Source: a virus (taxonomy: Duplodnaviria > Heunggongvirae > Uroviricota > Caudoviricetes). Taken from it: 64,000 bases of DNA. Each line of letters opens with the position of its first letter. The first letter of the stretch is position 1. The DNA is taken from the IMG/VR virus record IMGVR_UViG_3300035520_000763, positions 71,032-135,031 of that record. One strand, written 5' to 3'. Of this stretch, positions 6,390 to 57,548 are shown in pieces. Made by a program: the position numbers and the translations under genes. The notes beneath the pieces were generated by a model that saw only the letters and a list, made by a program, of their open reading frames with translations, was not told the DNA's origin and made no database searches.

Positions 6390-7490
6390 ATGTTAAATAT
6401 TCAAAGATTTTTGGGATTTACAGATAATATTAAGGAACCACGCAAAACAAAAGTAGAAAATGAATTAAGTCGTTATTATTCATATAAAGGAGACGTTTAT
6501 AACACAGTCTCCTTTTTGTGTGTAAAGTTGTTGGAAGGCAGTACATTAAAGAAAGAAGAAAATTATCAATACTACAAGCGAAATGGTGAGTTAAGCAAGC
6601 CAAAGACATTATATAAATATGTTAGTCCAAATAGTGAAACATATTTTGAATTGAATAAAACACAGTATGATTTTGTAGAATATCTAATCAATAATGGATT
6701 AGATACAGAAGAAAAAATGATTGCTTTTGATAATGTTGATGTTGAAAAAATAGAAGCTGCTAAAAAGGCAGAGCAAGAAACAGAAAAAAGACGTATTGAA
6801 GAAGAACGGAGAAGAGAAGAAGAAAAAGAAAATTTTAAGAGATGGTTAGTTGAAGAATCAGAAAAAATTCCACAGTTGCAGAAAGATATCATCAACGATG
6901 TCTTTCTTGCTATTTATGGAGAAGAAAATTGCTGGAACTATTCTCTTGCAGTATGTATCAATTGGTATGATAAACCATTATGTAAAGAAGAAGTGAAAGC
7001 AAGACTTCATAATGACAATAAAGCAAGTATAAAAATATTTGAGTGCTTGACTGGTTTGAAACTGCCAAGGGGATATAAAGAGAGAATGGAATATCTTGAT
7101 AGTATTACAAGTGCAGATTTTAATGAGCCGAAGGATTATAAATCACGCAAAAAGTCACATAAAAGTGAAGTTGAATTGAGTGAATTTTATATTATTGAAA
7201 CTGGTATGGAAAATGGTAAGCGTAATTACAGATGGGTTAAAGCTGTTGGAGAGCCGGTTGAAGAATATGGTGTTCCAATGTTTGTTCAGAATCATAACGG
7301 GAATTATATATTGACAGTTGTAGAAAATGGCATAAAGGTTGCCAGCGGAAAGTCAAAAACGGATTGTATGAATAATCTTAAATGTTTCGTTGACAAGATA
7401 GGTAAAGAACAGCTTATAAGTAAGATTGCTGAAGCTACAGAAATGGTTACTAAAAATGCTGGTCGTAATCCTTTATATAATGTAATTTGA
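6390..7490 (+). CDS. hypothetical phage protein with central E/R/K-rich coiled-coil segment
   Basis: ORF track (6381..); RBS GGAGGTTGA; charged repeat EKRRIEEERRREEEKE. Confidence 0.55.
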   Translation: MLNIQRFLGFTDNIKEPRKTKVENELSRYYSYKGDVYNTVSFLCVKLLEGSTLKKEENYQYYKRNGELSKPKTLYKYVSPNSETYFELNKTQYDFVEYLINNGLDTEEKMIAFDNVDVEKIEAAKKAEQETEKRRIEEERRREEEKENFKRWLVEESEKIPQLQKDIINDVFLAIYGEENCWNYSLAVCINWYDKPLCKEEVKARLHNDNKASIKIFECLTGLKLPRGYKERMEYLDSITSADFNEPKDYKSRKKSHKSEVELSEFYIIETGMENGKRNYRWVKAVGEPVEEYGVPMFVQNHNGNYILTVVENGIKVASGKSKTDCMNNLKCFVDKIGKEQLISKIAEATEMVTKNAGRNPLYNVI

Positions 7491-9583: not shown

Positions 9584-9734
9584 TTTTATCAATAGAATAT
9601 AACATCTATTAGTGAATGCAAATTGAAATTATCAAGCAAATATGATACGCTTAAAAGAATTTCTACTGTAGTAGATTAAAAAATCCTTCAAGTGTATTTT
9701 TTGTTGCAAAAATCAGATAAAAGGAGGGTTCATT

Positions 9735-10421
9735 ATGTTAGTAAAATTCGAAAAGGAGTCAGATGTTTATATTGTTGATAGTAACAATAAACAGGCAATC
9801 TTAAAAATTGCGGAAATATATTATGGAGGAGGTGCTCGTTACAAGTTAATTGACACAAAACATGGTGGATATGCAGACCCAAAGTTAGAAAGGGAATTAA
9901 TATTAAATACTAATTTATTTCGCAATGGTTTTTTCTCTACAGCAATGTCCACTATCCAAACACCATATGGAAGATATGTATGTAACGCGCTGACGGTATA
10001 TAACTTTGCATTTTATATTTATTCGGAGTTAAAAAGAATTGAAGATGAGTGTAAAGCATGTGATGCGTTGCAGGATTCGGGCGAGACAATATCACAGTTG
10101 CCAAATGTTTGTGACATTGATGAATTAGATAAAATGGTTGATAATCCACCTAAACATCAGCTAATCAATCCGGGCGAAGCATTAAGGCAACTCGGAATTA
10201 CAGAAGAAATGAGCGAAGATGAATTGAATTTCATTTACGCTGAATGTTTACATGAATTGTGCAAATATTTTGACTTCGATGTTAAATCAGCAAGGTTTGC
10301 ATTAATTGATAAAGGTAAGTTATCTAAAACAAGAGAGAAATATGCTTATTTAAGAGATAATTACTATAAAATTAAAGAAAAGGAAATAAAAAGAGCGAAA
10401 GAAAAATATTTCGCAGAGTAA
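9735..10421 (+). CDS. hypothetical phage protein
   Basis: ORF track; RBS AAGGAGGG. Confidence 0.55.
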   Translation: MLVKFEKESDVYIVDSNNKQAILKIAEIYYGGGARYKLIDTKHGGYADPKLERELILNTNLFRNGFFSTAMSTIQTPYGRYVCNALTVYNFAFYIYSELKRIEDECKACDALQDSGETISQLPNVCDIDELDKMVDNPPKHQLINPGEALRQLGITEEMSEDELNFIYAECLHELCKYFDFDVKSARFALIDKGKLSKTREKYAYLRDNYYKIKEKEIKRAKEKYFAE

Positions 10422-10427
10422 GATATA

Positions 10428-10466
10428 AAAGCCACTAGATTAGAAATAGTCTGGTGGCTTTGTTAT
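10428..10466 (+). terminator. rho-independent-type hairpin (AAAGCCACTAGAT...ATAGTCTGGTGGCTTT)
   Basis: Stem of about 12 bp with one mismatch, short loop, followed by T-rich TTGTTATT; directly after the stop of 9735..10421. Confidence 0.5.
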
Positions 10467-10506
10467 TAGAAAAAGTAGACAGAATATTTGAAAGGTGGTA
10501 TAATAA

Positions 10507-11517
10507 ATGTCAGATAACAGGTATGCAACCAAGAGAAAAGGGAAAACAGAAAAAGATCCATTTTGGAATTTACAGGATATTAAAAATCTGGTTGAATGGT
10601 TTGAAAATAATAATAAGTGGGATGGATATTTAATCACTATGTTCGAACTCCTTCTTGGTAGACGAATTGGTGATACAGTTTCAATGGTGTGGTCAGATTT
10701 TTATTATGAGAATGGAAGACGCAGAGACGAAATTGTAACCGTTGTTGAACAAAAAACGGGAAAGACAAATGAAGTTCCTTTGACAAATTTAGCATTTGAA
10801 GCAATAGAAAAATATTGCCAGAATACTAAAATCAATCCAATGGAACATTATAATGAATATATTTTCAATTTTCCTTGTAAAACGAAATGGATTAAGCGAA
10901 AGGATAATCCGATTTATAAGCATAAAGAATGTGATGTAGAATTGTTCTGCAAAGTACTTGAAAAGACATATGAGAATGATAGAAAAGCTAAAATTGTTGA
11001 AAAATTTTATAATCAAAAGGAATACTCAAGCTTTGGTGACTATTTTTATTATGAGGTGGAGTATACGGACATTATTAAATGGACAACAGATACGTATCGT
11101 ATAATGTTTAACAAAGCAAAAAAAGCGTGTGGCATATCCTATGATGTCTCAACACATAGTTTCAGAAAATCTTTTGGTTATTGGATTCATCATACGCATC
11201 CATATGATCCAGACTGTTTGTTGTCTCTCCAAAAGATGTTTGGTCACGCAACATTGCAACAGACAATGGATTATATAGGATTAACAAAAGAAAAGAACAG
11301 GATGTACATTAATGACCATAGTGAAATGATTAGGAAAACATTAGATGGCAACGCAGATGAAATCATAAAGAATAGTCCTGTTATTTCTCTTAAAACAGAA
11401 GATTATGGGAAAATAATTAAGACAATAATAGATATGTGCAGAGAAAATGAAAATTCTGATATGGAAATATATCAGATGGCAATTAATATGGGAAACGAAT
11501 TAAGAGTTGTGAAATAA
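10507..11517 (+). CDS. int: tyrosine site-specific recombinase / phage integrase
   Basis: R in LLLGRRIGD (box I), HSFRKSFGYWIHH (H-x-x-R box II) and catalytic Y in TMDYIGL; size 336 aa. Confidence 0.8.
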   Translation: MSDNRYATKRKGKTEKDPFWNLQDIKNLVEWFENNNKWDGYLITMFELLLGRRIGDTVSMVWSDFYYENGRRRDEIVTVVEQKTGKTNEVPLTNLAFEAIEKYCQNTKINPMEHYNEYIFNFPCKTKWIKRKDNPIYKHKECDVELFCKVLEKTYENDRKAKIVEKFYNQKEYSSFGDYFYYEVEYTDIIKWTTDTYRIMFNKAKKACGISYDVSTHSFRKSFGYWIHHTHPYDPDCLLSLQKMFGHATLQQTMDYIGLTKEKNRMYINDHSEMIRKTLDGNADEIIKNSPVISLKTEDYGKIIKTIIDMCRENENSDMEIYQMAINMGNELRVVK

Positions 11518-13370: not shown

Positions 13371-14558
13371 ATGTTTAGAGTTAATCCATATAGACCAGGA
13401 GCTGGTTTAATGCCAACATACTTAGCAGGAAGAGATGAAGATATAAATGATATTGAGCAAATTTTTGAAGCATTAACGATGAATATTCCTACACAGTCAA
13501 TCATATTTAGTGGGTTAAGAGGTGTAGGGAAAACAGTACTTATAAACAAACTTGAAAAAATTGCGGAAGATAAAGGGGTATTCTGCAAGCACATAGAGGT
13601 AGAAGAAAGAAATGATTTTATCTCTCAGATTGCCACATGTTCACAAGCATTTTTAAGAAAAGTTAGTACAAAAGAAAAATTCAAACATTTGATACAAAAG
13701 CCATTAGATGCAATAAAGTCATTAGTCGTGTCTTTTGATCCGAATGATAGTACTTTTTCATTGTCGATTCAAGAAAAGGAACTATATAAATCAAATAATT
13801 TAACACAAAGTTTAACTGAAGTTTTTACAACAATTGGAGAAACTGCGTATAAAACGGAAACTCCTATTTGTTTTTTTATTGATGAAATACAATATATGAA
13901 ATCTTCTGAACTTGGAGCTTTGATTGCAGCGTTGCATAGGGCAAATCAATTAGGATACCCTGTAATGATAGTAGGAGCAGGACTTCCTAAGATATATAAA
14001 ATGTTATCTGAAGAGAAATCCTATTCTGAAAGATTGTTTATATATAAAGAAATTGATTCACTAACAGAAGATCAAGCACGAAAAGCCATTGAAATTCCGG
14101 CTGAGAAATTCGGAGTGTCATATACAAAAAAAGCAGTTGAATGTATTATGAGTATAACAAAGTGCTATCCATTTTTTATTCAACAATTGTGTCAGATTGT
14201 ATTTCAACATACCAATAATAAAATTATAGATATCCAAGATATAGAAGAAAGTAAATTTGATTTCTTTAAACAATTAGATGCTGGATTCTTTAAAGTGAGA
14301 TATGAAAGATGTTCTGATGGAGATAAGAAATTTATTTTTGCAATGGTAAAATGTGGAGAATTACCATGCACAATATTGAACATAGCTCAAAATTTAAAGA
14401 AAAATGTTTCTTCTATCTCTACAATAAGAGCGCAGCTTATAAATAAGGGATTAATATATCCTGTAAGATATAAGGAATTGGATTTTACTGTTCCAGAATT
14501 TACCGGTTTTATTCAAAGAACAGAAGAATATCAAAAATGGAACAATGAAAATAATTAA
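13371..14558 (+). CDS. P-loop AAA-type ATPase (Arch_ATPase/AAA_16-like: N-terminal F-x-G-R-E/D-E-I motif, Walker A GLRGVGKT, Walker B FFIDEIQ)
   Basis: Motifs read from the translation; 395 aa; probable winged-helix-like C-terminus. Confidence 0.65.
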   Translation: MFRVNPYRPGAGLMPTYLAGRDEDINDIEQIFEALTMNIPTQSIIFSGLRGVGKTVLINKLEKIAEDKGVFCKHIEVEERNDFISQIATCSQAFLRKVSTKEKFKHLIQKPLDAIKSLVVSFDPNDSTFSLSIQEKELYKSNNLTQSLTEVFTTIGETAYKTETPICFFIDEIQYMKSSELGALIAALHRANQLGYPVMIVGAGLPKIYKMLSEEKSYSERLFIYKEIDSLTEDQARKAIEIPAEKFGVSYTKKAVECIMSITKCYPFFIQQLCQIVFQHTNNKIIDIQDIEESKFDFFKQLDAGFFKVRYERCSDGDKKFIFAMVKCGELPCTILNIAQNLKKNVSSISTIRAQLINKGLIYPVRYKELDFTVPEFTGFIQRTEEYQKWNNENN

Positions 14559-20838: not shown

Positions 20839-21063
20839 TCACTTAATATCATCTTTTGGAAGAAAATTTAAATCAAATTGTAAATTAAGTGCATCGAAAA
20901 TCCTAATTATTGTTTTACATTCAGTATTTTTACCATTTAATATTTGTTGGACATTTTGTGAAGTTGTATGCATATTAATTGCTAGTTCTTTTTGGGTAAT
21001 ATCATTTTTTTTCATATATTTTTGAATTTCCCAAAGCAAATCTTCTGTTGAATGAAAAACCAT
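20839..21063 (-). CDS. XRE-family HTH transcriptional regulator (Cro/CI-like, 74 aa)
   Basis: HTH signature ...ITQKELAINMHTTSQNVQQILNGKN...; only minus-strand gene; divergent from mazF-like gene. Confidence 0.7.
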   Translation of the reverse strand: MVFHSTEDLLWEIQKYMKKNDITQKELAINMHTTSQNVQQILNGKNTECKTIIRIFDALNLQFDLNFLPKDDIK

Positions 21064-21197: not shown

Positions 21198-21335
21198 ATA
21201 TATGTATTAAAAAAATATAAAGAACATGAAAATTAAATAATTCATTCTTGAGTTAGGTGGTTTTTTGGATTTAGAGTGATACTGTTGTGGTGTCACCTTT
21301 TTGTAGTTTTAGTCTTCATGAAAGGAAGTATTATT

Positions 21336-21695
21336 ATGAATGACAAAAAAGAAATTAAAAGAGGAGAAATATATTATGCAGATTTAAGCCCAGTTGTGGG
21401 TTCGGAACAGGGTGGAGTAAGACCGGTCATTATTATCCAGAATGACAAGGGAAATATGTTTAGTCCGACTACAATTGTAGTAACTATGTCAACAAAAACA
21501 AAAAAGAAAGCTAATTTACCAACACATGCGTTGGTTTACAGCGTAAACCAGACGGGCTTAAAAGCAGACAGCGTAGCCTTATGCGAACAAATTCACACCA
21601 TTGATAAAAGTCGATTAAGGGAAAAGATTGGCAGCTTAAACGAAATTGCCTTAAACAAGGTAATGAAAGCAGTTAGTGTGAGTTTGAGCATGTAA
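21336..21695 (+). CDS. mazF: MazF/PemK/EndoA-family endoribonuclease toxin
   Basis: Very close match to the EndoA/MazF core (RGEIYYADLSPVVGSEQGGVRPVIIIQND...LPTH...DSV...EQIHTIDKSRL); ATG at 21336 after GAAAGGAAG; no mazE-like ORF upstream. Confidence 0.85.
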   Translation: MNDKKEIKRGEIYYADLSPVVGSEQGGVRPVIIIQNDKGNMFSPTTIVVTMSTKTKKKANLPTHALVYSVNQTGLKADSVALCEQIHTIDKSRLREKIGSLNEIALNKVMKAVSVSLSM

Positions 21696-22009: not shown

Positions 22010-22229
22010 AAATATATCCTTAAAAAATAGCATATTGGACAATATGTTCTATTGACAAAATCGAACAAAAGTTCTATGCTAAATATGTTGGGAAAATAAA
22101 AAAGAGAAAGCCTATCCAGTTCAAACGGTAATTGGGAGTTACCTACTAATGATAGAACTTTCTCTAACACAAATTCACCTTCCAGAACGGAAGGAATTTA
22201 GATACGGTAGATAAGCTAACCACTGAGCT

Positions 22230-22280
22230 AACCGCAGAATTAACTGCACCAACCGCAGAATTAACTGCACCAACCGCAAG
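22230..22280. repeat. tandem 21-bp direct repeat AACCGCAGAATTAACTGCACC x2.4 (iteron-like)
   Basis: Two perfect 21-bp copies plus a 9-bp partial copy; the last partial copy AACCGCAAG is inverted-repeat partner of CTTGCGGTT at 22321..22329, enclosing hairpin ACCTTGA-TTAG-TCAAGGT (22298..22315). Confidence 0.7.
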
Positions 22281-22456
22281 TCTATTTTACAGATTTCACC
22301 TTGATTAGTCAAGGTATTTTCTTGCGGTTCAGTTAAATTTTTCCATTATTACAATTACATATTAATTTTTTGTAACATATTCAATAATTCTTTGCGAATT
22401 GGTGTATATATGTTTGCATTTTTATCAAAAATTTAATACGAAAGGGGAATGATTAT

Positions 22457-23065
22457 GTGGATTATGTAATTAAGAATCATAATAACTTGTTTATTAAGCT
22501 AAACGAAAAGGGACAACCTGTTAGCTGCTCAGAAAAGGAGAAACAACTTTTTGAGTTCAGTAAGGCAAAGAATATTTGTGATTGTCTTCCTAAAACTTTG
22601 CGAAAAATCGGTTTTAAGGTAGAAGCAGTTCCGGATATTCCTACAACAAACCCAAATAAAATTGTACACAAAGAAGAATATATTGTTTCGGAGAATATTA
22701 CTAGGTGGATAGAAAAGTTTGGCACATGTTCAGATATTCTTGAAGAAGCAAAAATACGTGAAAGTCAGTTATGCAAAGAGTTGAAAAAATCAGACAATGA
22801 ATTACTTGATATTTTACATATTATTGAGATAGAGCCACCAAAGGACTTATATCACGGCTGGCTATTATACAAAAGAATAAAGAAAAACAGAAAAGAAAGA
22901 AGAGAAATAAAAGACGAGTTAATTATCGTCAAAGATGTTATTCAAGAAATTAATCCTTCTTGTTTACATCGAAAAAGAATACAAAAAGCGATAAATGGAT
23001 TATTTAACAGAGAATATACATTCAGAATCGTTGAAGGTGGTGATGATGAGAATGATTGTGTGTAA
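22457..23065 (+). CDS. hypothetical phage protein (GTG start)
   Basis: ORF track; RBS AAAGGGGAATGA. Confidence 0.5.
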   Translation: MDYVIKNHNNLFIKLNEKGQPVSCSEKEKQLFEFSKAKNICDCLPKTLRKIGFKVEAVPDIPTTNPNKIVHKEEYIVSENITRWIEKFGTCSDILEEAKIRESQLCKELKKSDNELLDILHIIEIEPPKDLYHGWLLYKRIKKNRKERREIKDELIIVKDVIQEINPSCLHRKRIQKAINGLFNREYTFRIVEGGDDENDCV

Positions 23066-23228
23066 AAATTGCTATATTCCTATGGTAGGAACAATGTCCT
23101 TTTCAAAAGACAAACATGAAAAATATTGTCGTTATCCTAAATGTAAAAAAGAAACAAAACATACTACATTACGGGATGATGAATTGGAATTTGAAGAAAT
23201 ACTGCATAAAGAAATAAAAAAAAGATAA
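23043..23228 (+). CDS. small zinc-ribbon protein (CKNC...C...CKKE)
   Basis: ORF track (22995..); ATG at 23043 after GAAGGTGGTG. Confidence 0.45.
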   Translation: MMRMIVCKNCYIPMVGTMSFSKDKHEKYCRYPKCKKETKHTTLRDDELEFEEILHKEIKKR

Positions 23229-23262: not shown

Positions 23263-25383
23263 ATGATAATGGATGCGAATTTAAATCAAATCGTAAATAC
23301 ATATTTCGAAAATAATGCTTATAAACTACATAAAATAGTGGACAAAATCTTATGGAAGCTAAACTTTCATGATGTTGACCACGAAGATTTTTATTCGTTA
23401 TCACATGAACTTTTTTATAAAAGTCTTGAAGATTACGATAGGTCAAAATCTTTTGATGCTTTTTTGTATTCTTGTCTCTATAAAAAATTTTGTACGGAAA
23501 TGACAGGAACAAATAGAGATAAGCGAAGTAATAATATTAAAGTTGAAAAAAAAGATGAAGACGGAAATATTATTAAAGACGAAACAGGAAATGTAGTAAC
23601 AGAAAAAATTAAAATTCCAGACATTTCTTTTGATACACCGGTAGGAGACGATGATAATACTCAACTTAAAGATATGATTAGTTCTAAATTTAACGTTGAA
23701 TCAAGTTTATTTTCTTCTTGCAGCGAGAATATGGAAAATTATATCAATAATTTGGATGAAATACAAAAGAATATCGCAGAAATGATAGGAGAAGGATTTA
23801 ATTCTTCTGAAATAAAAGGAAAGCTTAATTTAAGTGATAAAGAATATTCTCAACAAATATCTGTCATGAAATCTTATGAAAAAAGAAAAGTTTTTTATGA
23901 AGAAGAGAGCAATGATATGGAGGAAGAAAGCATGAATACAGGAGATTTAGTAGCAAATACGACAGAAACTTACAGAAATACAAGCTATAGTATTGAATCA
24001 ATAAGTAAACAATTGTCAAAAAAACAACTTAGAGATGACCATATTCTTCAAAGGCATAGCGGGCAATGGAAAAATTTTGCAAAAAGTGAATTGATTTCTG
24101 ATATTCTTCGTGGGAAATCTCTTACGCAAATTATTGTATCGGAAGAAATAAAAAATAATCTGCGTATGAAGTGGTTAATTGATGGTAAGCAGCGTTGCAC
24201 AACATTGCATGATTATCTGCTTGACGGATTTGCGATTCAGAAAAATGTTAAGAATTATAACATAAGATATCAGGCGGCAAAACTTGATGAGAATGGAAAT
24301 GAAATATTAAATGAAGAAGGTTTTGCTGTAATGGAAACCAAAGAATTTGATATTCGTGGCAAAAAGTTCTCGCAATTACCTGAAGAATTACAGGATATAT
24401 TCAAGGATAGACAGATACCTGTTTTATATAATGAAAATTGTACAAAAAAAGATATAGCAGATGATATAGCCAGATTTAATAGAAGTAGGTCGATGAATAC
24501 TGCACAGCTTGGTTGGTTAGGCTTAGATGAAGAATTTGCAGAATTGGTTGAAAAGATGACAAAAATGAAATTCTTCCAACCGAATTTCAAGGGAAGTTCT
24601 TATACCGATAATAACCACACATCAAGTGCAATAAGAAGAATAATTGTTGAAAGCATTTTTGTTTCAGATTTCATTAATGAATATAGTAAAGATTTTGAAA
24701 AGAAATGCACTTATTTATCAGAAGAAGCCAGCGATTCAAATTTCACAGAATTTTACAGCTATGTTGAACGGCTCACTTCCGTATCCAATGAAGATGTTGC
24801 AGATATGTTTAACGCTAAAAATTCATTTTTGTGGTTTGGATTATTTTCAAGATTTGATAATTATGGGCTTGATGATACAAAATTTATTGATTTTATGAAA
24901 GCCTTTAAAGAGTCTTTACATAAAAAGAAAATTAACGGTATATCTTACGAAGAACTTGAAGGTAAGGGGACAAAAGATAAAAACATAGTCACAAAAAAAA
25001 TGCAGCATTTGGAACAACTTATGAATGAATATTTACATAGTGACATAGAAAAAGCAAACAAAGAAGTTGATGAAGAAGATTCATTAAATATCGTTAAATA
25101 CATAAATCCTGATGTAACGGAAAAAGATATTCAGGATTATAAAGAAGATTTAGAAATATTAACTCTTGAAGTTAATAATAAAAGTAAATTGTTAGATGAA
25201 CGTAATATACCATCATTAATTGCCATGATTGCATATGGCTATACAAAAGATGAAGCAATTGATGAGTGGTTTGTAGATTACTTTAGGAGAAATAATATGT
25301 ATACACTAAATCAAAAACGCAATTTGCAACTAATGATTGAAGACTTTAATGAATTCAAAAAACAGAAGGGGGCGGTTGCGTAA
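23263..25383 (+). CDS. 706-aa fusion protein: N-terminal sigma-70-family-like region 2 + region 4 (aa ~30-215) fused to a DUF262 (ParB/Srx-fold) domain and a C-terminal helical domain
   Basis: Region-2-like motif ED-F-YSLSHELFYKSLEDYDRSKSFDAFLYSCLYKKF...R.KR; region-4-like HTH LDEIQKNIAEMIGEGFNSSEIKGKLNLSDKEYSQQISVMK; DUF262 signature HILQRHSGQW...LIDGKQRCTTL; single uninterrupted ORF with RBS AAGGCGG. Confidence 0.55.
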   Translation: MIMDANLNQIVNTYFENNAYKLHKIVDKILWKLNFHDVDHEDFYSLSHELFYKSLEDYDRSKSFDAFLYSCLYKKFCTEMTGTNRDKRSNNIKVEKKDEDGNIIKDETGNVVTEKIKIPDISFDTPVGDDDNTQLKDMISSKFNVESSLFSSCSENMENYINNLDEIQKNIAEMIGEGFNSSEIKGKLNLSDKEYSQQISVMKSYEKRKVFYEEESNDMEEESMNTGDLVANTTETYRNTSYSIESISKQLSKKQLRDDHILQRHSGQWKNFAKSELISDILRGKSLTQIIVSEEIKNNLRMKWLIDGKQRCTTLHDYLLDGFAIQKNVKNYNIRYQAAKLDENGNEILNEEGFAVMETKEFDIRGKKFSQLPEELQDIFKDRQIPVLYNENCTKKDIADDIARFNRSRSMNTAQLGWLGLDEEFAELVEKMTKMKFFQPNFKGSSYTDNNHTSSAIRRIIVESIFVSDFINEYSKDFEKKCTYLSEEASDSNFTEFYSYVERLTSVSNEDVADMFNAKNSFLWFGLFSRFDNYGLDDTKFIDFMKAFKESLHKKKINGISYEELEGKGTKDKNIVTKKMQHLEQLMNEYLHSDIEKANKEVDEEDSLNIVKYINPDVTEKDIQDYKEDLEILTLEVNNKSKLLDERNIPSLIAMIAYGYTKDEAIDEWFVDYFRRNNMYTLNQKRNLQLMIEDFNEFKKQKGAVA

Positions 25384-25702: not shown

Positions 25703-26197
25703 ATGATAATGAAATTGTCTGAAATTAAAATTAGTAATGCATTTGCTGAAACTTCGCCAAAGAAGGAGAAAATATCCAAATGCTATGAACACTGGAAGAA
25801 TACTGGAACGCAAGATAGATTTATTATTGTAGATTATAATAATGTACTTGTAGATGGATATATCATGTATCTTGTATTAAAAGAATTGGGTGTTGAAATT
25901 GCGTTTGTTAAAATTCAGGATAATTATAAAAATAATCCGACAGTATACATATATGGGACTCATCAAAATCCATATGGTAAATTAAGAAAAACATATATAT
26001 GGAGAGTCCCGGAAAGCTGGACTTCATTCGCCAATACAGTAGATGTTGGTGATGTAGTACTTTGTCAAACGAGATTTGGTGTTTCGTTAATTGTTGTAAA
26101 CAAAGTTGAGGCGTTCAGTAAATGTCCTGTTAATATTCCGGTTAAAAAAATAGTGAGTAGAAATATTATCAGAAACGGAATGCTTGTGAAAGGATAG
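25703..26197 (+). CDS. ParB-like nuclease (ParB N-terminal/Srx fold) domain protein
   Basis: LSEIKISNAF...DRFIIVDYNNVLVDGYIMYLVLKELGVEIAFVKI resembles ParBc motif (I.V.....l.dG.hR..A.k.lG...i...V). Confidence 0.5.
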   Translation: MIMKLSEIKISNAFAETSPKKEKISKCYEHWKNTGTQDRFIIVDYNNVLVDGYIMYLVLKELGVEIAFVKIQDNYKNNPTVYIYGTHQNPYGKLRKTYIWRVPESWTSFANTVDVGDVVLCQTRFGVSLIVVNKVEAFSKCPVNIPVKKIVSRNIIRNGMLVKG

Positions 26198-27550: not shown

Positions 27551-27575
27551 GTTTGAGAACCTTATAAGTTTACAT
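27551..27575. repeat. 25-bp direct repeat copy 1 GTTTGAGAACCTTATAAGTTTACAT (contains palindrome CTTATAAG)
   Basis: Read from sequence; partial GTTTGAG copy immediately 5'. Confidence 0.7.
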
Positions 27576-27616
27576 GGTAATCAAACGTGCGTAGTTTGGG
27601 AGTAAAGGGATTACTT

Positions 27617-27641
27617 GTTTGAGAATCTTATAAGTTTACAT
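27617..27641. repeat. 25-bp direct repeat copy 2 GTTTGAGAATCTTATAAGTTTACAT (1 mismatch)
   Basis: Separated from copy 1 by a 41-bp unique spacer; about 90 bp upstream of the TnpB/Cas12-like ORF. Confidence 0.7.
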
Positions 27642-27729
27642 AACAATTAAATGCTTAAAGGTACTCTTTATTTAATAATTAGCATGAGACAATTATGATT
27701 TTATATAATAATTAAATGAAAGGATAAAA

Positions 27730-29361
27730 ATGGATAACGAAAATAAGAATATTAGTACAAGAAAAATAGTTTTAATACCAGAATATAGTGATACAAAAAA
27801 ATGGATAAAAAAGGTTAATGATTTTGCCATTTCTGATTATAAACATAAAATAGAAGTCAAAGAAGAACAGATTAAGAATATAAAAAAGAAAAAGCTAAAT
27901 AAAGAGGATGAGACAAGACTTTTAGAGAAATATCAAAAACAACTAGATACTTTAAATGATAAATTAAATACATATATTGAAACGAAAGAAATTACAAAAG
28001 AAATCGTTAATAATTACACATACAATCTGGTAAGAGAATCAATGGAATCAGAGGTAAGAAGAAAGAATTATATATTATCATGGGCTTTTAGCAAAATGAT
28101 TGAAAACGGTGTTCAGTATATGGATATTAAAGATAGGACAAAATTTATTAAAGATATGATGAATACTGCATATAGAGTAAAAGGCTCTAAAAAGGGAAGT
28201 GCTTTTGATGATGTTGAAATTAGTAATATTTTAAATGGATATGGTATAGCTTTTTCTAAGGATTTTACAAAAAAGTTAATTAAAGATGTGAATGATGGAT
28301 TATTAGACGGAAAAATTAGTCAAAGAACATATAAGATGGATTCGCCGTTTACGATAGCAAAGTCAACAATGGGATTCTCACATGATTATGATTCTTATGA
28401 AGAGTTATGCGAACACATCAATGATAAAGATTGTAATATGTATTTTGATTTTGGTGGAAATCAAAAACCGACAATTGCAAGATTTAAAATACATACCGGA
28501 TATAAAAAGAATAAGCAAGAACTAAACGCAACATTGTTAAAGATATATTCAGGAGAATACAAATATTGTGGCAGTAAAATAGAGTTAGATAAAACGGGTA
28601 AAAAAATAATACTCGATTTGTCATTTGAAATTCCTACAAAAGAAGTATTTTTAGATGAAAACCGAACTTGCGGAATTGATAGAGGTATTAAAATTCCGGC
28701 TGTATGTGCCTTAAATGATGATAAATATACTAGAGGATATTACGGTTATTGTGATGATTTGTTTGCTAAAAGAACGAAAATTCAAAATCAAAGAAAAAGA
28801 TTGCAGAAATCATTAACTTATACGAGTGGAGGGCATGGAAGAGATAAAAAATTAAAGGCACTTAAAAGATTGGAAGAATATGAGAAGAATTTTGTGGAAA
28901 ATTATCTTCACCATATCTCAAAACAATGTGTTGACTTTGCAGTAAAAAATCATTGCAAATACATAAATATTGAAAATTTAAAAGGCTATGATGCAGATGA
29001 TAAAATACTCCGAAATTGGTCTTATTATAAATTAGAGCAGTACATTACATATAAAGCTGAAAGATACGGAATTATTGTTAGAAAAATTAATCCTTGTTTT
29101 ACATCACAAGTATGTAGTTTTTGTGGAAGTTATGAAAAAGGGCAAAGAAAAACACAGTCAGATTTTTTGTGCGCTAATGAAAATTGTACAAGCCATTCTG
29201 AAAAACACAAATATATAAATGCGGATTTTAATGCAGCAAGGAATATTGCAATGTCCACATTATATTACGATGGAGAAATTACAAATAAACAGATAGAAGA
29301 AGCCGCAAATTATTATGGAATTGTATTAGATGAAAATAAGGATAAAGAACTGGTGGCATAG
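27730..29361 (+). CDS. TnpB/Cas12f-like RuvC-domain nuclease (543 aa), no adjacent TnpA
   Basis: RuvC-I CGIDRGIK, RuvC-II YINIENLKGY (E), TnpB-type C-terminal motifs NPCFTSQVCSFCG (zinc finger) ... CANENC ... INADFNAARNIA (RuvC-III D); about 170-aa N-terminal extension with coiled-coil relative to the 367-aa TnpB at 33625. Confidence 0.8.
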   Translation: MDNENKNISTRKIVLIPEYSDTKKWIKKVNDFAISDYKHKIEVKEEQIKNIKKKKLNKEDETRLLEKYQKQLDTLNDKLNTYIETKEITKEIVNNYTYNLVRESMESEVRRKNYILSWAFSKMIENGVQYMDIKDRTKFIKDMMNTAYRVKGSKKGSAFDDVEISNILNGYGIAFSKDFTKKLIKDVNDGLLDGKISQRTYKMDSPFTIAKSTMGFSHDYDSYEELCEHINDKDCNMYFDFGGNQKPTIARFKIHTGYKKNKQELNATLLKIYSGEYKYCGSKIELDKTGKKIILDLSFEIPTKEVFLDENRTCGIDRGIKIPAVCALNDDKYTRGYYGYCDDLFAKRTKIQNQRKRLQKSLTYTSGGHGRDKKLKALKRLEEYEKNFVENYLHHISKQCVDFAVKNHCKYINIENLKGYDADDKILRNWSYYKLEQYITYKAERYGIIVRKINPCFTSQVCSFCGSYEKGQRKTQSDFLCANENCTSHSEKHKYINADFNAARNIAMSTLYYDGEITNKQIEEAANYYGIVLDENKDKELVA

Positions 29362-30628: not shown

Positions 30629-31329
30629 GTAGAAAATTTCAGTTAGAAAAAGATTATTATGATGAAGGATATGACTTATACAAAAAGAAGACAATTACAA
30701 TTAAGCCCAAAATTACTGTCTTAGTTGGTTGCAACGGAATTGGCAAAACAACATTACTTCATCAGCTCAAAAGTCATTTAAAAAAGAAAAATATTCCTTG
30801 TATATCATTTAATAATTTAGACGATGGTGGAAGAAACGCCATGTCAGAAGCTAGTTTTTACGGAGATCTTAGTTTTTTGTCAACTTCAATGCAATCCTCC
30901 GAAGGTGAAAATATAGTTATGAATATGGAAAGTTTTGCAAGAAGATTAGGTGATTTTGTTAAAACTGGCGAAGATCCAAAAGAATCAAAGTATAAAAATC
31001 TTGCAATAGCAATGAAAAAAGCAAGTGGAGAAACAATAGAAGAAACAGAAATACCAAAAGAACGATGGATTCTACTCGATGCAATTGATAGTGGACTGAG
31101 CATAGATAATATTGTAGATATTAAGGAAGATTTATTCAAAACTATCCTTGAATATAATTGTGGAAATGAAATCTATATTATTGTGGTAGCAAATGAATAT
31201 GAAATGGCAAGGAATGAACAGTGCTTTGATGTCTATAATGGCAAATATATAACTTTTAAGGATTATGAAGATTATCGGCAATTTGTGTTAGATAGTAAGG
31301 AATTAAAAGAAAAAAGGTATAAAGAGTGA
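30625..31329 (+). CDS. ABC/AAA_21-like P-loop ATPase (Walker A GCNGIGKTTL, Walker B/D-loop ILLDAIDSGLS)
   Basis: Motifs from the translation; 234 aa; no TM segments. Confidence 0.6.
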   Translation: MSRKFQLEKDYYDEGYDLYKKKTITIKPKITVLVGCNGIGKTTLLHQLKSHLKKKNIPCISFNNLDDGGRNAMSEASFYGDLSFLSTSMQSSEGENIVMNMESFARRLGDFVKTGEDPKESKYKNLAIAMKKASGETIEETEIPKERWILLDAIDSGLSIDNIVDIKEDLFKTILEYNCGNEIYIIVVANEYEMARNEQCFDVYNGKYITFKDYEDYRQFVLDSKELKEKRYKE

Positions 31330-31414
31330 TTATTTGATTTGCTTTACAAATAATAATGAGAACATATAAGTTCCATTTTATTTTTAGATTAGGAAAAAGA
31401 AGGGAGGAAGATAA

Positions 31415-31567
31415 GTGCCCGCATTAGCAATTATAGTAATACTGATATGTATTGCGGTTTGGTTTCTGGCATCTGCTTTATACAAGCCCATTGGAAGATG
31501 GATAGGTAAAATTGGAAGAGATGCAATCGAAGCCATGAAAGAAGAAGATAAAGATAAAAACGAATAA
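31415..31567 (+). CDS. small membrane protein (50 aa; GTG start; one TM helix)
   Basis: Self-translated ORF VPALAIIVILICIAVWFLASALY...; immediately upstream of SPFH gene; RBS GGGAGGAAG. Confidence 0.4.
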   Translation: MPALAIIVILICIAVWFLASALYKPIGRWIGKIGRDAIEAMKEEDKDKNE

Positions 31568-31580
31568 GGAGAAAAGTTAT

Positions 31581-32465
31581 ATGAAGGAAAAGAAGAGAAG
31601 TGGATTAGTAGGTGGTATTACATTAGCAGTTGTAATTGTAATTGTTTTAATTTTAGTGGCGATATGTACAAAAAAAGTACCTGCGGGCTATGTGGCGGTA
31701 CAGTATTCGGTTAATGGGGGAATCAAAGATGAAGTCCTTACTCAGGGTTGGCACTTTGTATCACCGGCAACGAAGACAAAGCTGTATACGGTAGGTATTG
31801 AACAGAGTTATTTAACATCGGGCAAAGATGGCGATTCTAAGGATGATGAGAGTTTTACAGCCAGCTCATCTGAGGGTAAAGCTATGACAATTGACCTTAC
31901 ATTTACATATCAGTATCAGCAAGAAGATGTAGTTGGTGTATTTACAAGATTTAAGGGGCAATCTGGTAAGGAAGTAAGAGATAATTTTATTAAGCCTAAT
32001 ATTATATCGTGGACTAAGGAAGTTGTAGCAAGATATAAGGTGTCAGATATTCTCGGTTCAGAAAGAGCAGCAGTTAATTTAGCTTTAACAGACTACTTAT
32101 CAGAAAAATTTGAGAGTTACGGCATTACAATTAGTAACGTATCCTTAATCAATATTGAGGTTGATGAGGAAACTCAGGAAGCTATCAATGCCAAAATTAC
32201 TGCGCAGCAAAACGCGGAAACGCAGAGCATTAATAACCAGACAGCAATTGACAAGGCTGCCGCCGAAGCACAGGTTAAACTTACGGAAGCACAGGCTGAA
32301 GCTGATGCACAGAAGATTAAGGCTGATGCAGAGGCAGAGGCTAACAAGAAAATTGCTGAATCACTTACATCTGAACTCATCGAAAAGATTAAGTATGAGC
32401 AGTGGGATGGAGCATTGCCACAGGTTCAGGGGACAAGTACACCAATTATTAACATGGCAGACTAA
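31581..32465 (+). CDS. SPFH/band-7 (stomatin/prohibitin-like) membrane protein with C-terminal A/E/K/Q-rich coiled coil
   Basis: N-terminal TM (GGITLAVVIVIVLILVAI) followed by SPFH-like core (...GYVAVQYS..., ...ISNVSLINIEVDEETQEAINAKITAQQ...). Confidence 0.7.
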   Translation: MKEKKRSGLVGGITLAVVIVIVLILVAICTKKVPAGYVAVQYSVNGGIKDEVLTQGWHFVSPATKTKLYTVGIEQSYLTSGKDGDSKDDESFTASSSEGKAMTIDLTFTYQYQQEDVVGVFTRFKGQSGKEVRDNFIKPNIISWTKEVVARYKVSDILGSERAAVNLALTDYLSEKFESYGITISNVSLINIEVDEETQEAINAKITAQQNAETQSINNQTAIDKAAAEAQVKLTEAQAEADAQKIKADAEAEANKKIAESLTSELIEKIKYEQWDGALPQVQGTSTPIINMAD

Positions 32466-32725
32466 TAGTAATTATTATGTAGATAGAGGATTTTCTTCTA
32501 TCTGCATAATGTATAAGAAATAGATTACAAGAGGAAAAGAAAGATAAAAATGAGAGGTTTTTTAGTATTTCTTTATATTATCGCAAGTGCTTTCTTATTT
32601 GGATTGTGTTTAGATGTATCACCCAAAATATGTCTCATTCTTCCTACATTAGTAAATTTCATAATTTCTTGGATAGTAGGTGTAAAATTTTGTGTGGAAA
32701 AACTCATGAAAGAAGATGATAATTA

Positions 32726-33013
32726 ATGAAAAAATTAGTGACAACACCACTAACTAATACTATTTGGTGGGCGACTGTTAATGAAGACAAGGGTATGATT
32801 ACTGGCAATAGAGTTGATGTTACAGATGATGCAATTAATGCTGTGTTTCAGCATTTAATCAACATGGATAACTTTAAAGAAAAGGGATTTGCTGGTTATG
32901 AAATCCCAAGAAAAGAAGATGATAGCTTTATTACCATATGTGTATTTGATAGTAGAAGGCATATTTGTATTTCAAAAAAATTGTTTGAAGAATTAAAAAA
33001 TTATGAAAAGTAA
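32726..33013 (+). CDS. hypothetical phage protein
   Basis: ORF track. Confidence 0.5.
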   Translation: MKKLVTTPLTNTIWWATVNEDKGMITGNRVDVTDDAINAVFQHLINMDNFKEKGFAGYEIPRKEDDSFITICVFDSRRHICISKKLFEELKNYEK

Positions 33014-33190: not shown

Positions 33191-33607
33191 ATGAGAAAGA
33201 ATAGAACAAATCCAAATTATAAAAGTAAAAATCATAGTAAATTCATACTTACATATCACATCATATTTGTTTGTAAATATCGTAAAAAACTTCTTACTAA
33301 ATATGGTGAAGACATAAAGCAGATAATGTTTGATATAAGCAAGAAGTATGATTTTGAAATTAAAGAAATGGAAGTTGATAAAGATCATATTCATATGATG
33401 ATAGAATCTGTTCCAAGGTTATCACCATTACAGATTGTAAGAACATTAAAACAGCAATCTACTATTCAAATATGGAGAATGTATAATAAAGAGTTAAAAC
33501 ACCATTATTGGAATGAAAACACCTTTTGGACTGATGGATATTTCTGTTCAACAATTGGAGAAGTAAGTGGTAAGATATTAAAGCGTTATATACAGAACCA
33601 AGGATAG
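33191..33607 (+). CDS. tnpA: IS200/IS605-family Y1 (HuH) transposase TnpA
   Basis: HuH motif DHIHMMIE and catalytic-Tyr region TDGYFCSTIG; 138 aa. Confidence 0.85.
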   Translation: MRKNRTNPNYKSKNHSKFILTYHIIFVCKYRKKLLTKYGEDIKQIMFDISKKYDFEIKEMEVDKDHIHMMIESVPRLSPLQIVRTLKQQSTIQIWRMYNKELKHHYWNENTFWTDGYFCSTIGEVSGKILKRYIQNQG

Positions 33608-33624: not shown

Positions 33625-34728
33625 ATGTTAAAAGCTTATAAATATAGATTATATCCAAATAAAGAACAGCAAGAATATTTTGCAAAATGTTTCGGTTGTG
33701 TACGATTCATCTATAATCGTATGCTTTCAGACAAGATTGAATATTATAAAGAAACAAAACAGAAACTTAATAATACACCTGCTCAGTATAAAAAAGAATT
33801 TGAATGGCTAAAAGAGGTTGATTCACTTGCATTAGCAAATGCTCAAATAAATTTACAGGCTGCTTATAACAACTTTTTCAAGCGTCCAGAAGTAGGATTC
33901 CCAAAATTCAAAAGTAAGAAAAACCACTATTACTCTTACACTACTAATAATCAGGGTGGAAATATTCATGTATCTGATAGATATATCAAACTTCCTAAGA
34001 TTGGTTTAGTAAGAGTAAAGAAACATAGAGTGTTTGCTGGTAAAATAAAATCTGTAACTGTTTCTAAAAATCCAAGTGGTAAGTATTTTGTGTCTGTATT
34101 GGTAGAATGTGAAGAACAAGAAAAACTTCAACAATCTAATACAAATGTAGGGATCGACTTAGGAATAAAAGAATTTGCTATTACTTCTGATGGAGAAAAA
34201 ATAGAAAATCCAAAGTTTCTTAAAAAATCAGAAAATAGACTTAGGAAATTACAAAAGGATTTGTCTCGCTGTCAAAAGGGCAGTAAGAATAGAGAAAAAT
34301 GCAGAATAAAAGTTGCAAAACAACATGAAAAAATAACTAACCAAAGAAAAGATTTTTTACATAAACTTTCAAAACGAATTATTGACGAAAACCAAGTCAT
34401 TTGTTTAGAGAATCTTAAAATAAAGAATATGTTAGGAAATCATAAATTGGCAAAATCAATATCCGATGTGTCATGGAGCGAATTTATAAGACAGTTGGAA
34501 TATAAAGCTGAATGGTATGAAAGAGAAATTATAAAAGTAGATACTTTCTATTCGTCAAGTCAGATATGTTCTAATTGTGGTCATAAAGATGGAAAGAAAG
34601 AACTTTCTGTAAGAGAATGGATTTGTCCTGTATGTGGAACATACCATGACAGAGATATTAATGCAGCTATAAATATCCTGAATGAAGGATTGAGAATAAG
34701 AAGCGTAGGGACTACGCCGATAGCCTAG
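33625..34728 (+). CDS. tnpB: IS605 OrfB / TnpB RuvC-like RNA-guided nuclease
   Basis: N-terminal [11 protein letters not shown], RuvC-I GIDLGIK, Ruv[15 protein letters not shown]-terminal zinc finger and RuvC-III motifs SSQICSNCG ... CPVCG ... [10 protein letters not shown]; 367 aa. Confidence 0.85.
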
Positions 34729-48797: not shown

Positions 48798-49535
48798 GTG
48801 CTTGAAATTATAGGTGAAGAAAATATATCAGAGATAATCGAACCTAGTTGTGGCAATGGTTCATTCTATCACTATAACTCATATATCCCGCATTTCGGAT
48901 ATGACATAGAACCACAATGCGATTATCAAGGTGTGATTAAAGCTGATTTCTTAACACAGGACATACATTATTTATGGGGAAGATTAGTTATTGGCAATCC
49001 TCCATATGGTAGGTGTATGAATTTAGCACAGAAATTTTACAAGAAGTCGGTTGAGATTGCAGATTACATAGCATTTATCCTTCCTATAAGCCAGTTAAAC
49101 AATACAAGGTCAATGTATGAGTTTGACTTAATATATAGTGAAGATTTAGGAATAGCCACTTATACCGATAGGGAGTTACATTGCTGTTTTAATATTTATA
49201 AGCGTCCTGAAAATGGAGTATTAAATAAGAAGCCAACGGCAAAATTAAAGGATATTACAATCTATCGGCAAGATTGTAAGGATTATGAGAATAAAGATTT
49301 TGATATCCGTATGTGCTATTGGGGAGATGGTACAGCAGGTAAGATTTTAAAAGATGATGAGCATTATTCTGCCGAGTATAAAATCAAGGTTAATGACGAT
49401 TCAAAAAGAGAAGATATTATTAGAGTGTTATCTACATTTGACTGGAAAGAATATTTGAACTGTATAGCGATGAGAAAAATTCAACAGTTTCATATTGTAG
49501 ATGTACTAAAAGATAATATAAGTGGAATTAAATAA
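48798..49535 (+). CDS. N6-adenine DNA methyltransferase (motif I EPSCGNGSF, motif IV NPPY); true N-terminus probably upstream (frame open from 48726 and encodes YYTP motif without a canonical start)
   Basis: Motifs from translation; GTG start per ORF track. Confidence 0.65.
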   Translation: MLEIIGEENISEIIEPSCGNGSFYHYNSYIPHFGYDIEPQCDYQGVIKADFLTQDIHYLWGRLVIGNPPYGRCMNLAQKFYKKSVEIADYIAFILPISQLNNTRSMYEFDLIYSEDLGIATYTDRELHCCFNIYKRPENGVLNKKPTAKLKDITIYRQDCKDYENKDFDIRMCYWGDGTAGKILKDDEHYSAEYKIKVNDDSKREDIIRVLSTFDWKEYLNCIAMRKIQQFHIVDVLKDNISGIK

Positions 49536-49607: not shown

Positions 49608-50330
49608 ATGGGTTCAAAGAGCAGAATAGTTAATAACATTCTGCCAATAATTCAACAAAGATTAAAAGATTATAATATTAAAACATATATTGAGCCATTT
49701 TGCGGCGGGCTTAATGTAATAGACAAAGTGGTTTGTAATAAGAAAATTGCATCAGATAATCATAAATATCTTATTGCCATGTTCCAAAATTTAGACAAAA
49801 TTCAAGAACTTCCCGATTTTGTAACAAAAGAACATTATTCAGAAGTAAGAGATTGCTTTAATGAAGGAGAAGTATATTTTCCAGATTGGTACATAGGAGC
49901 AATCGGTTTTCTTGCAAGCTATAACGGAAGATTTTTTGATGGTGGATATTCAGGATTAGTCAACACGAAAGCTGGTACTGTAAGAAACTATTATGACGAA
50001 GCAAAAAGAAATTTAATAGAACAGATACAAAACTTGCAAGATATAGAGTTTCGATGCTGCGATTACAGAGAATATACAGATTATGAAGATTGTTTGTTCT
50101 ATTTAGATCCACCATATAAGGGTAAGAAACAATATGGTTCAAGTAAGGAATTTAATCATGATGAGTTTTGGAACTGGTGTAGACATATGAGTGAGAAAAA
50201 TATTGTACTTATTAGTGAGCATGAGGCTCCTTCGGATTTTGAATGTATCTGGGAGCAACCGGTTAAAAGAACAATTGACAATAATAAGCGTGTAAATGTA
50301 GTTGAAAGATTATTCGAGATTAGAGAGTGA
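49608..50330 (+). CDS. dam: Dam-family (D12-class) DNA adenine methyltransferase
   Basis: Motif I IEPFCGGLNV and motif IV YLDPPYKG characteristic of Dam-like MTases. Confidence 0.75.
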   Translation: MGSKSRIVNNILPIIQQRLKDYNIKTYIEPFCGGLNVIDKVVCNKKIASDNHKYLIAMFQNLDKIQELPDFVTKEHYSEVRDCFNEGEVYFPDWYIGAIGFLASYNGRFFDGGYSGLVNTKAGTVRNYYDEAKRNLIEQIQNLQDIEFRCCDYREYTDYEDCLFYLDPPYKGKKQYGSSKEFNHDEFWNWCRHMSEKNIVLISEHEAPSDFECIWEQPVKRTIDNNKRVNVVERLFEIRE

Positions 50331-55495: not shown

Positions 55496-55498
55496 GTA

Positions 55499-57457: not shown

Positions 57458-57548
57458 ATATAAGTTGGAAGATAAATAAGAAAGTAGGTGATATTACATA
57501 TTTGAAAATAATACATATGAGCTATTTCAAGGTAAATGTCTTAAATTG

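Follow-up and report, generated by a model that had tools for sequence, protein, structure and literature searches.

The DNA analysed here, called the window throughout, is a 64-kb stretch (positions 71,032 to 135,031) of the Caudoviricetes record IMGVR_UViG_3300035520_000763, with a GC content of ~31% and nearly all genes on the + strand, for which no close DNA relative was found among deposited phages. At 23263..25383 on the + strand it contains an open reading frame (ORF) that starts with ATG and encodes a product of 706 amino acids (aa), exactly as delineated in a first-pass annotation of this sequence. That annotation had proposed that the N-terminus of the product resembles regions 2 and 4 of a sigma-70-family sigma factor and that a ParB/Srx-fold DUF262 domain follows in the same polypeptide. 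Both proposals hold, the first being supported by family-level profiles, structure prediction and fold searches, the second by sequence motifs that are invariant among the 38 close family members compared. That the protein joins a sigma-70-family module (residues 1-212) to a nuclease-free DUF262 module (residues 213-706) is, in our judgement, hardly open to doubt.

Taken by itself, the window protein gives low-scoring matches to sigma factor profiles. Pfam Sigma70_r2 aligns with residues 26-73 at E=0.15, the PHROG family 'RNA polymerase sigma factor' matches at E=0.0016, and the NCBIfam model TIGR02937 reaches 25.7 bits (cut-off 42.9) while spanning model positions 9-154 of 165. Eleven of the 38 close members match Sigma70_r2 in Pfam (best 3.7e-7), and single members match Sigma70_ECF, Sigma70_r4_2 or GerE. 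Ten divergent fusions with a C-terminal part of 30-41% identity were also scanned; eight match Sigma70_r2, with three exceeding the gathering score, and region-4 models are matched by several, so that the sigma4 stretch of relatives is recognised by the Sigma70_r4, r4_2, ECF and GerE models. The Pfam model specific for extracytoplasmic function (ECF) sigma factors, PF07638, is matched by one of the 38 close and one of the ten divergent members, below or near threshold. One relative, P0172, passes both Sigma70_r2 (31.8 vs 24 bits) and TIGR02937 'sigma-70 family sigma factor' (50.0 vs 42.9). A profile built from the N-terminal 228 aa retrieved essentially only sigma factors from the PDB, with C. 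difficile SigA as best match (1.1e-6), followed by RpoD, SigH, FliA, SigB and RpoS; the exceptions were a few LuxR/GerE-type helix-turn-helix (HTH) proteins, which align with the part corresponding to sigma4. Regions 2.2-2.4, a region-3.2-like segment and the beginning of region 4 are all included in the alignment with the sigma factors.

The sigma2 domain (residues 1-88, 23263..23526; this and all following parts of the gene on the + strand) is a four-helix bundle equivalent to regions 2.1-2.4 and carries the signature D.DDFYS...YD.SK.F..FLY...NRDKR. It is followed by a variable beta-hairpin insertion (residues 89-120, 23527..23622), recognised from the structural model, the insert lengths and the gaps in hhalign alignments, that measures 6-32 aa in the family and is missing from the sigma proteins of the split forms described below. 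An extended region-3.2-like linker containing SFDTPVGDDDNTQLKDMISSKF (residues 121-154, 23623..23724) was placed by the PDB profile alignment, where SLDAPIGDDE..TIGD.I.SD aligns to SLEtPIGeeeDshLGDfI of SigA/RpoD. The sigma4 HTH domain (residues 155-212, 23725..23898) was delimited by the helices of the model, with TIGR02937 reaching position 154 of its 165. In an AlphaFold2 (AF2) model of the sigma part, with a predicted local distance difference test (pLDDT) score of 81, these elements appear as a bundle of four helices, an inserted beta-hairpin, a linker in extended form and an HTH domain of four to five helices, and a Foldseek search with this model returned almost only sigma factors, with ~210 columns aligned. 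A sigma3 domain is lacking, a layout that corresponds to minimal group-3/4 sigma factors. In their profile matches and predicted fold, residues 1-212 represent a complete minimal sigma-70-family factor composed of sigma2, a region-3.2-like linker and sigma4, which would be expected to bind the core of RNA polymerase (RNAP) and to direct promoter-specific initiation. The two modules are connected by an acidic, disordered linker (residues 213-235, 23899..23967; pLDDT <50) with a net charge of -9 in the window protein and of -4 to -9 in relatives.

In the C-terminal part, Pfam GmrSD_N/DUF262 matches residues 262-389 of the window protein at E=1.4e-5 and 25.7 bits (gathering score 33.2). The same model is matched by 35 of the 38 members, and P0172 passes its gathering score (43.0 vs 33.2 bits). 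The closest profile match of the whole module is NsnA, the sensor of the Menshen defence system: the PADLOC NsnA model aligns over positions 18-383 of 385 with residues 213-591 (E=1.3e-11), and the standalone relative P0160 matches it as well (E=1.2e-8). The DUF262 part shows fold similarity to BrxU. We assign residues 236-420 (23968..24522) to a DUF262/GmrSD_N domain, NTPase-like and of the ParB-Srx fold. By the published motif definitions, QRxxxW and DGxQR (Machnicka et al. 2015, PMC4619093; the 2025 Menshen study, PMC12065111), motif I is Q263-R264..W269 (nt 24049-24069) and motif II D307-G-K-Q-R311 (nt 24181-24195); QR..W and DGKQR are present in all 38 members. An invariant R404-F405-N406-x-S408 (RFNRS) lies at the place of motif III (FxxxN), with a different spacing from F to N. 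From these invariant motifs, the domain is a putative NTP-binding and NTP-hydrolysing one. The subsequent helical domain (residues 421-591, 24523..25035) is the counterpart of the C-terminal half of the NsnA model, a part that the Menshen authors term the ParBDB DNA-binding domain (PMC12065111). The gene ends with a variable helical tail and the stop codon (residues 592-706, 25036..25383); the tail contains no known domain or nuclease motif, and many relatives align only as far as residue ~591-610.

A nuclease of the DUF1524/HNH type, which the first-pass annotation had likewise failed to see, is missing. The motifs (E/D)H(I/L/V)xP and L(G/A)NLxLL occur in none of the 38 members, and a loosened form of the third DUF1524 motif, NxxFxxKK, gave a partial match in one of them, which we take as spurious. 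No conserved His is found in residues 321-706 across the 38 members, and no fused or standalone relative scanned has a DUF1524 match in Pfam. Mean pairwise identity in the family is uneven, with 34% in sigma2, 48% in sigma4, 84% in the DUF262 domain, 63% in the helical, ParBDB-like domain and 36% in the tail, a distribution that would fit a constrained catalytic core combined with fast-evolving specificity modules.

The combination of the two modules recurs far beyond the window. In a 176-kb record from human faeces entitled 'Bacteriophage sp.', tblastn detected a homologue over the full length (45% identity, residues 16-704), and a search of 5.8 billion proteins returned 745 matches with >120 full-length homologues at 50-63% identity. 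Among the best 120 of the 745, nearly all have 680-735 aa and align over 97-100% of the query; their contigs reach 280 kb in length, and several homologues carry precomputed annotations with both PF04542 and PF03235. The architecture is kept in well over a hundred independent sequences. The alignment stays in frame over the junction of the sigma and DUF262 halves, and the reading frame across 23850-24000, where a frameshift had been considered, is conserved in all homologues.

An exhaustive HMMER search with residues 229-706 against 1.84 billion cluster representatives gave 816 matching clusters, 230 of them at E<=1e-30. Among the best 150 of the 816, 74 are fused, with an N-terminal extension of ~200-250 aa, and 60 are standalone proteins that begin with the DUF262 module; fusions persist down to ~30% identity. 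In all three standalone clusters inspected (P0160, P0186 and P0162) the gene directly upstream encodes a full-length homologue of the sigma module of 189-224 aa, which hhalign aligned with the sigma module at a probability of 99.9-100% (E=5.8e-43, 5.4e-45 and 3e-35). These sigma proteins end exactly at the module boundary, and where the fused form has its acidic linker the split forms have a stop codon, a Shine-Dalgarno (SD) sequence and an ATG. At the junction there is either a gap of 4 nt, with GGAGGA lying within the end of the upstream gene, or the stop and start codons overlap. Instead of one fused gene, ~40% of the listed related clusters have two translationally coupled genes for the two modules. 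Because the same pair occurs both fused and split, the Rosetta-stone argument implies that sigma and DUF262-ParBDB act as one functional unit. A distant DUF262 homologue of 395 aa in Bacillus phage PJN02 has no adjacent sigma gene, and split forms that were informative came only from closer relatives.

Upstream of the gene, direct reading identified a sigma-A-type promoter, TTGACA-N17-TATGCT (22052..22081, + strand), which is probably the promoter of the operon. Its spacer harbours a LexA (Cheo/SOS) box, CGAACAAAAGTTC (22062-22074, + strand), the sole exact CGAAC-N4-GTTC of the 64-kb window, where 0.09 are expected, and the block of promoter and box is conserved in the alignment with three related loci (L005, L040 and L007). 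In Gram-positive bacteria the LexA operator takes the form GAACN4GTTC (B. subtilis) or GAACnnnnGTT(C/T) (clostridia; PMC4234289), with CGAAC(n)4GTTCG as extended form (PMC4551915). We surveyed 45 related loci (425 kb) for exact GAAC-N4-GTTC. Thirty-five of the 36 boxes found lie <=1.5 kb upstream of the sigma gene, compared with 0.54 expected by composition, and they are distributed over 26 of the 45 loci and 29 distinct sequence contexts. Typically the boxes are paired, one upstream of the -35 element and one in the spacer abutting the -10 element, and in eight loci box and promoter are only 60-130 nt from the ATG of the sigma gene. As the boxes concentrate upstream of the sigma gene, we consider it probable that host LexA represses the operon and that DNA damage induces it, in the way that host LexA represses the lytic promoter of phage GIL01 (PMC4551915). 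In MT835469.1 (L052) the only promoter-embedded LexA-like box, TTGACTtacaGAACAAATGTTTGTATAAT at position 94290, marks the boundary between a rightward block of small genes and a leftward block of large genes and is not upstream of the sigma-DUF262 gene, which lies at 30766-32997. Since this box is placed elsewhere than the sigma-DUF262 gene, the SOS wiring appears to differ between lineages.

Promoter and first ORF are separated by a long leader (22082..22456, + strand), in which direct reading and Tandem Repeats Finder (TRF) revealed small hairpins and a perfect tandem repeat in which the 21-nt unit AACCGCAGAATTAACTGCACC is present in 2.3 copies (22230-22278, TRF score 98). The first-pass annotation had regarded the repeat as iteron-like and the sigma-DUF262 gene as directly downstream of it; in fact the repeat is 1 kb away from that gene, on its upstream side, and two ORFs intervene. 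We also rejected the iteron interpretation itself, given that there are only 2.3 copies, that relatives hold one to three tRNA genes (Met, Gln, Leu) in this slot, and that the reverse complement of 22208-22232 resembles the 5' half of a tRNA (TGCGGTTAGCTCAGTGGTTAGC). The window contains no tRNA, and this part of the leader has the appearance of a tRNA region in decay, not of iterons. A search of the leader in Rfam gave no match. Hairpins in 22100-22340 of the window and 8680-8850 of L001 seem to covary (e.g. caaattcaCCTTCCagaacGGAAGGaattt vs caaattcaTTGACCagaaaGGTCGAgaattt) and are not conserved outside the closest lineage; a lineage-specific structured leader RNA is possible.

The leader is followed by two ORFs, both on the + strand. 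The first (22457..23065) encodes 202 aa with no match in Pfam or PADLOC; relatives have ORFs of ~207-222 aa at this position that show only 14-22% identity, so that homology across lineages is not robust. The second (23046..23228) adjoins the sigma gene and encodes a small 4-Cys zinc-ribbon protein, identified by alignment with ORFs of 44-49 aa at the same place in L001, L005 and L006, in which the pattern M.C..C...KY..CP.C.H is conserved; this protein might regulate the sigma factor as well. The conserved synteny comprises an integrase and/or a divergent gene of the HTH or ribbon-helix-helix (RHH) type, a PemK/MazF toxin gene, the non-coding leader, the ~200-aa ORF, the zinc-ribbon ORF and finally sigma and DUF262. 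The sigma-DUF262 gene itself lies within the element's long block of rightward early genes and shares its orientation. The gene is present on IMG/VR viral contigs of 28-155 kb as well as in genomes of Lachnospiraceae, including the cultured Eubacterium plexicaudatum ASF492 and Lactonifactor sp. BIOML-A5, and the element carrying it is a large temperate phage of Lachnospiraceae or a phage-like one integrated in their genomes. In one split-form lineage (L009) the DUF262 gene is followed by genes for a DUF6551 protein (6568-7401) and, further on, a PcfJ-like protein (9685-10827), which hints that some carriers may be conjugative or plasmid-like elements rather than typical phages.

In the window, the PemK/MazF-family toxin gene (21276-21695, + strand; E=2e-32) is followed by an ORF of 94 aa and preceded by a divergent Cro/CI-type HTH gene (20839-21063, - strand). 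The order HTH or RHH gene/PemK gene is syntenic in relatives and unusual for a toxin-antitoxin pair. Farther upstream, in the same strand block, are a tyrosine integrase/recombinase (10507-11517) and an AAA_16-type, STAND-like ATPase (13371-14558). Downstream of the sigma-DUF262 gene, the ORF at 25703-26197 had been annotated as a ParB-like nuclease, a reading that Pfam, PHROGs, PADLOC and the PDB do not support, as none of them gave a ParB-type match; its 164-aa product has an ILVDGY motif, gives only a weak match to DUF5839 and is 45% identical to a 169-aa ORF of L001, the downstream position being conserved. A TnpB/Cas12f-like protein of 543 aa (27730-29361), with OrfB_IS605 and TNB domains, is extended at its N-terminus by a long stretch and lacks a neighbouring TnpA, and just upstream of its gene two 35-nt direct repeats are 86% identical (27551-27585 and 27617-27651). 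A complete IS200/IS605 element, consisting of a Y1 TnpA (33191-33607) and a TnpB (33625-34728), is located 4 kb beyond. Three orphan DNA methyltransferase genes were assigned by PHROG families (48798-49535, 49608-50330 and 57546-58241; best E=8e-71), and relatives encode C5 and N4/N6 methyltransferases, which suggests that the DNA of the element may be multiply methylated. A cluster of a nucleotidyltransferase, a tRNA (CCA-adding) nucleotidyltransferase and a DHH phosphoesterase (53110-56386) may be a tRNA repair or anti-defence module.

Taking these findings together, we propose that the protein is an SOS-induced prophage sigma factor that is gated or targeted by its own NTP-dependent DNA sensor, a reading to which we assign a probability of roughly 55%. 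The operon would be silent in the lysogen, and the protein would be made upon cleavage of LexA after DNA damage. The sigma module would then engage the RNAP core of the host and direct it to element-specific promoters, initiating the next lytic stage. Sigma would be gated or targeted by the DUF262-ParBDB module, a built-in switch that senses DNA and depends on NTP. Such a role would resemble that of DUF262-ParBDB modules in GmrSD, BrxU and SspE, which sense modified DNA and turn NTP hydrolysis into activation of an attached effector (PMC12065111, PMC10952713). One option is that sigma is kept inactive until DUF262-ParBDB engages DNA and nucleotide, similar to control by an anti-sigma factor or a fused regulatory extension; alternatively, DUF262-ParBDB could anchor the holoenzyme on the DNA of the element itself, which is probably methylated. 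Because the element encodes several DNA methyltransferases its own DNA is a plausible ligand, as far as circumstantial evidence goes.

Several observations weigh against this proposal. The window protein scores below the curated thresholds of both Sigma70_r2 and GmrSD_N, so that the domain assignment rests on family-level evidence, and the W-dyad of region 2.3 of housekeeping sigma factors is missing, as it is in ECF sigma factors. The AF2 model is poor at the DUF262 motifs (pLDDT <50 at residues 255-269 and 299-307), and with a predicted TM-score (pTM) of 0.39 for the full-length model contacts between the modules are not reliably readable. An exact LexA box is missing upstream of the gene in 19 of the 45 loci, including MT835469.1. 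When 35 intergenic regions of the window were examined for enriched k-mers, no sigma-specific promoter motif emerged, nor did a cognate one emerge from 102 upstream regions of the complete 176-kb MT835469.1, the enriched words being only ribosome-binding sites and generic -10-like elements, and a search of the whole window for dispersed repeats yielded no dispersed binding site. The link between the methyltransferases and sensing of methylated DNA is circumstantial, methyltransferases being common in large phages, and RNAP binding, NTPase activity and DNA binding are predicted properties of the protein.

We also weighed other explanations, the first of which we regard as improbable. According to it the protein serves defence or superinfection exclusion, the NsnA-like module sensing invading modified DNA, like Menshen, GmrSD and SspE, and thereby freeing or activating sigma, in place of a nuclease, for the transcription of effector or abortive-infection genes. 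The nearest profile of the C-terminal module is indeed a Menshen sensor, DUF262 domains serve as sensors in several defence systems, and the adjoining PemK/MazF toxin gene together with integrases nearby make for a typical accessory or defence neighbourhood; moreover, NCBIfam/PADLOC contain the sigma-70-domain protein MzaA of an anti-phage system, which P0172 matches weakly. However, genes for NsnB, NsnC or other effectors are adjacent in none of the inspected loci, and the gene is embedded in, and co-oriented with, the long rightward early block of the element. A LexA-repressed promoter would, in addition, leave the gene off in the resting lysogen, which suits a regulator of induction better than a standing immunity sensor.

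Somewhat less credible is the idea that the sigma-like module does not bind RNAP at all and is a DNA-binding or sensory add-on, making the protein a ParB-like regulator or a partition-type protein. ParB-fold proteins such as KorB and VirB regulate transcription themselves, and the sigma domains are just 34-48% conserved, staying under threshold in many members. Furthermore, NsnA-like proteins often have varied N-terminal DNA-binding modules, e.g. winged HTH, PUA or region-1.1-like domains (PMC12065111). What is found here, however, is a complete sigma2-linker-sigma4 unit rather than an isolated HTH, including a region-3.2-like segment that is meaningful only inside RNAP. Its autonomous version of 189-224 aa has exactly the size and layout of a sigma factor, and relatives exceed curated sigma factor thresholds.

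Very little speaks for a type IV restriction enzyme that rides on RNAP via the sigma module, which the first-pass annotation had listed as a GmrSD-like enzyme recruited to RNAP: the DUF262 homology and the BrxU-like fold would be compatible with it, and some ParB/Srx domains are able to cut DNA, but neither DUF1524/HNH motifs nor a conserved His nor a DUF1524 match in the relatives scanned are there to provide a nuclease. Finally, a gene artificially merged from two by a frameshift or an assembly error in the window, the chimera suggested in the same place, is excluded for practical purposes in spite of naturally occurring two-gene versions, because the frame is continuous across the junction in >120 homologues from independent assemblies including isolate genomes, the linker is alignable in frame, and the proper junction of stop codon, SD sequence and ATG of the split forms is not present in the window gene. 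Of the three options raised initially, the one that survives is that of a DNA-(modification)-sensing transcription factor.

In a bolder version, which we regard as doubtful, DUF262-ParBDB would be a nucleotide-gated reader or loader that places sigma and RNAP on the DNA of the element according to the state of that DNA (methylation, replication or damage), not, or not only, according to promoter sequence. A clamp-like or targeting behaviour of the DUF262 module is purely hypothetical. If this were true, the protein would be a protein-only counterpart of the T4 sliding clamp/gp55 system or of the RNA-guided dCas12f-sigmaE, and the first ParB/Srx-fold NTPase integral to a transcription initiation factor. 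We see a modest chance of a mechanism that is new in kind.

As a rule, sigma factors are under the control of distinct anti-sigma proteins or of small sensor domains fused to them, whereas here the sigma factor is permanently paired, through fusion or translational coupling, with a putative DNA sensor. So far, it is in anti-phage nucleases and sensor proteins that ParB/Srx-fold NTPase-like sensors are known to occur. Should the proposal be correct, initiation of transcription would be coupled to a nucleotide switch and to recognition of the DNA state, which would explain how widespread prophages of ~100-280 kb in Lachnospiraceae, major commensals of the gut, are turned on by DNA damage. The family comprises hundreds of clusters with natural fused and split versions that aid its dissection, and cultured carriers make the question directly testable. 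Full-text literature searches for DUF262 in combination with sigma factor, and for phage sigma in combination with ParB, retrieved no description of such a pairing, in agreement with the first-pass annotation, which knew of no described family combining a sigma factor with a ParB-like fold.

The closest parallels on the sigma side are ECF sigma factors with fused regulators (ECF41 with a SnoaL-like, ECF42 with a tetratricopeptide repeat (TPR) and ECF238 with a Cys-rich extension), which share the sigma2-sigma4 core, the lack of sigma3 and the presence of a C-terminal extension. In these proteins the extension stands in for a separate anti-sigma factor, fused and operon-encoded regulators being two solutions to the same task (PMC7826278, PMC8999054), and the fused/split arrangement described here resembles the usual sigma/anti-sigma gene pairs. 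The reclassification of the ECF family lists 19 groups with C-terminal extensions, none of them DUF262 or ParB, and did not capture phage sigma factors (PMC7826278). None of the extension types described (SnoaL-like, TPR, Cys-rich, DUF1835 and transmembrane) fits the present one, which with ~490 aa, a ParB/Srx-fold NTPase-like domain and a DNA-binding domain is of a type undescribed there. The sigma module also differs from those of the ECF41/42 type by its beta-hairpin insertion and its borderline scores with ECF profiles.

On the side of the sensor, NsnA of Menshen is alike in being a ParB-DUF262 protein with a ParBDB domain. Genes for NsnB (ABC ATPase with DUF3696) and NsnC are, however, found beside the gene neither in the window nor in the inspected relatives, the downstream genes being small ORFs. 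Compared with NsnA, GmrSD, BrxU, SspE and DndB the protein thus stands without NsnB/NsnC and without a DUF1524 nuclease, and its motif II is DGKQR, not DGQQR. On NsnA, small sigma-70 region-1.1-like domains are all that the Menshen study reports (PMC12065111), whereas the N-terminal add-on in our case is a whole sigma factor encoded by a prophage-borne gene with a LexA-box promoter. Among database entries, the nearest precedent for a large accessory protein with a sigma-70 domain comes from the anti-phage system MZA, whose MzaA shows weak similarity only.

With respect to regulation, GIL01 is alike in that an operator for host LexA overlaps a sigma-A promoter of a mobile element (PMC4551915), an arrangement that is predicted from sequence for the operon studied here. 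UviA of C. perfringens pIP404, a UV-inducible sigma factor, and Xpf of B. subtilis PBSX, a sigma-like protein, are DNA-damage-induced switches for downstream genes of their elements; unlike the sigma factors of the present family, neither is known to be fused or coupled to a ParB/DUF262 module. Systems in which a sigma factor is brought to DNA by an attached tracking or targeting partner, T4 gp55-gp33-gp45 and dCas12f-sigmaE (PDB 9n9q), employ a sliding clamp or an RNA-guided protein, whereas the partner here has a ParB/Srx fold. KorB and VirB, in turn, are ParB-family CTPases and examples of a ParB/Srx-fold nucleotide switch that controls transcription; bound to DNA, they work by themselves as repressors or anti-silencers. 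Both are members of the canonical ParB clade with its GERR motif, whereas the protein described here is of the DUF262 clade and joined to a sigma factor.

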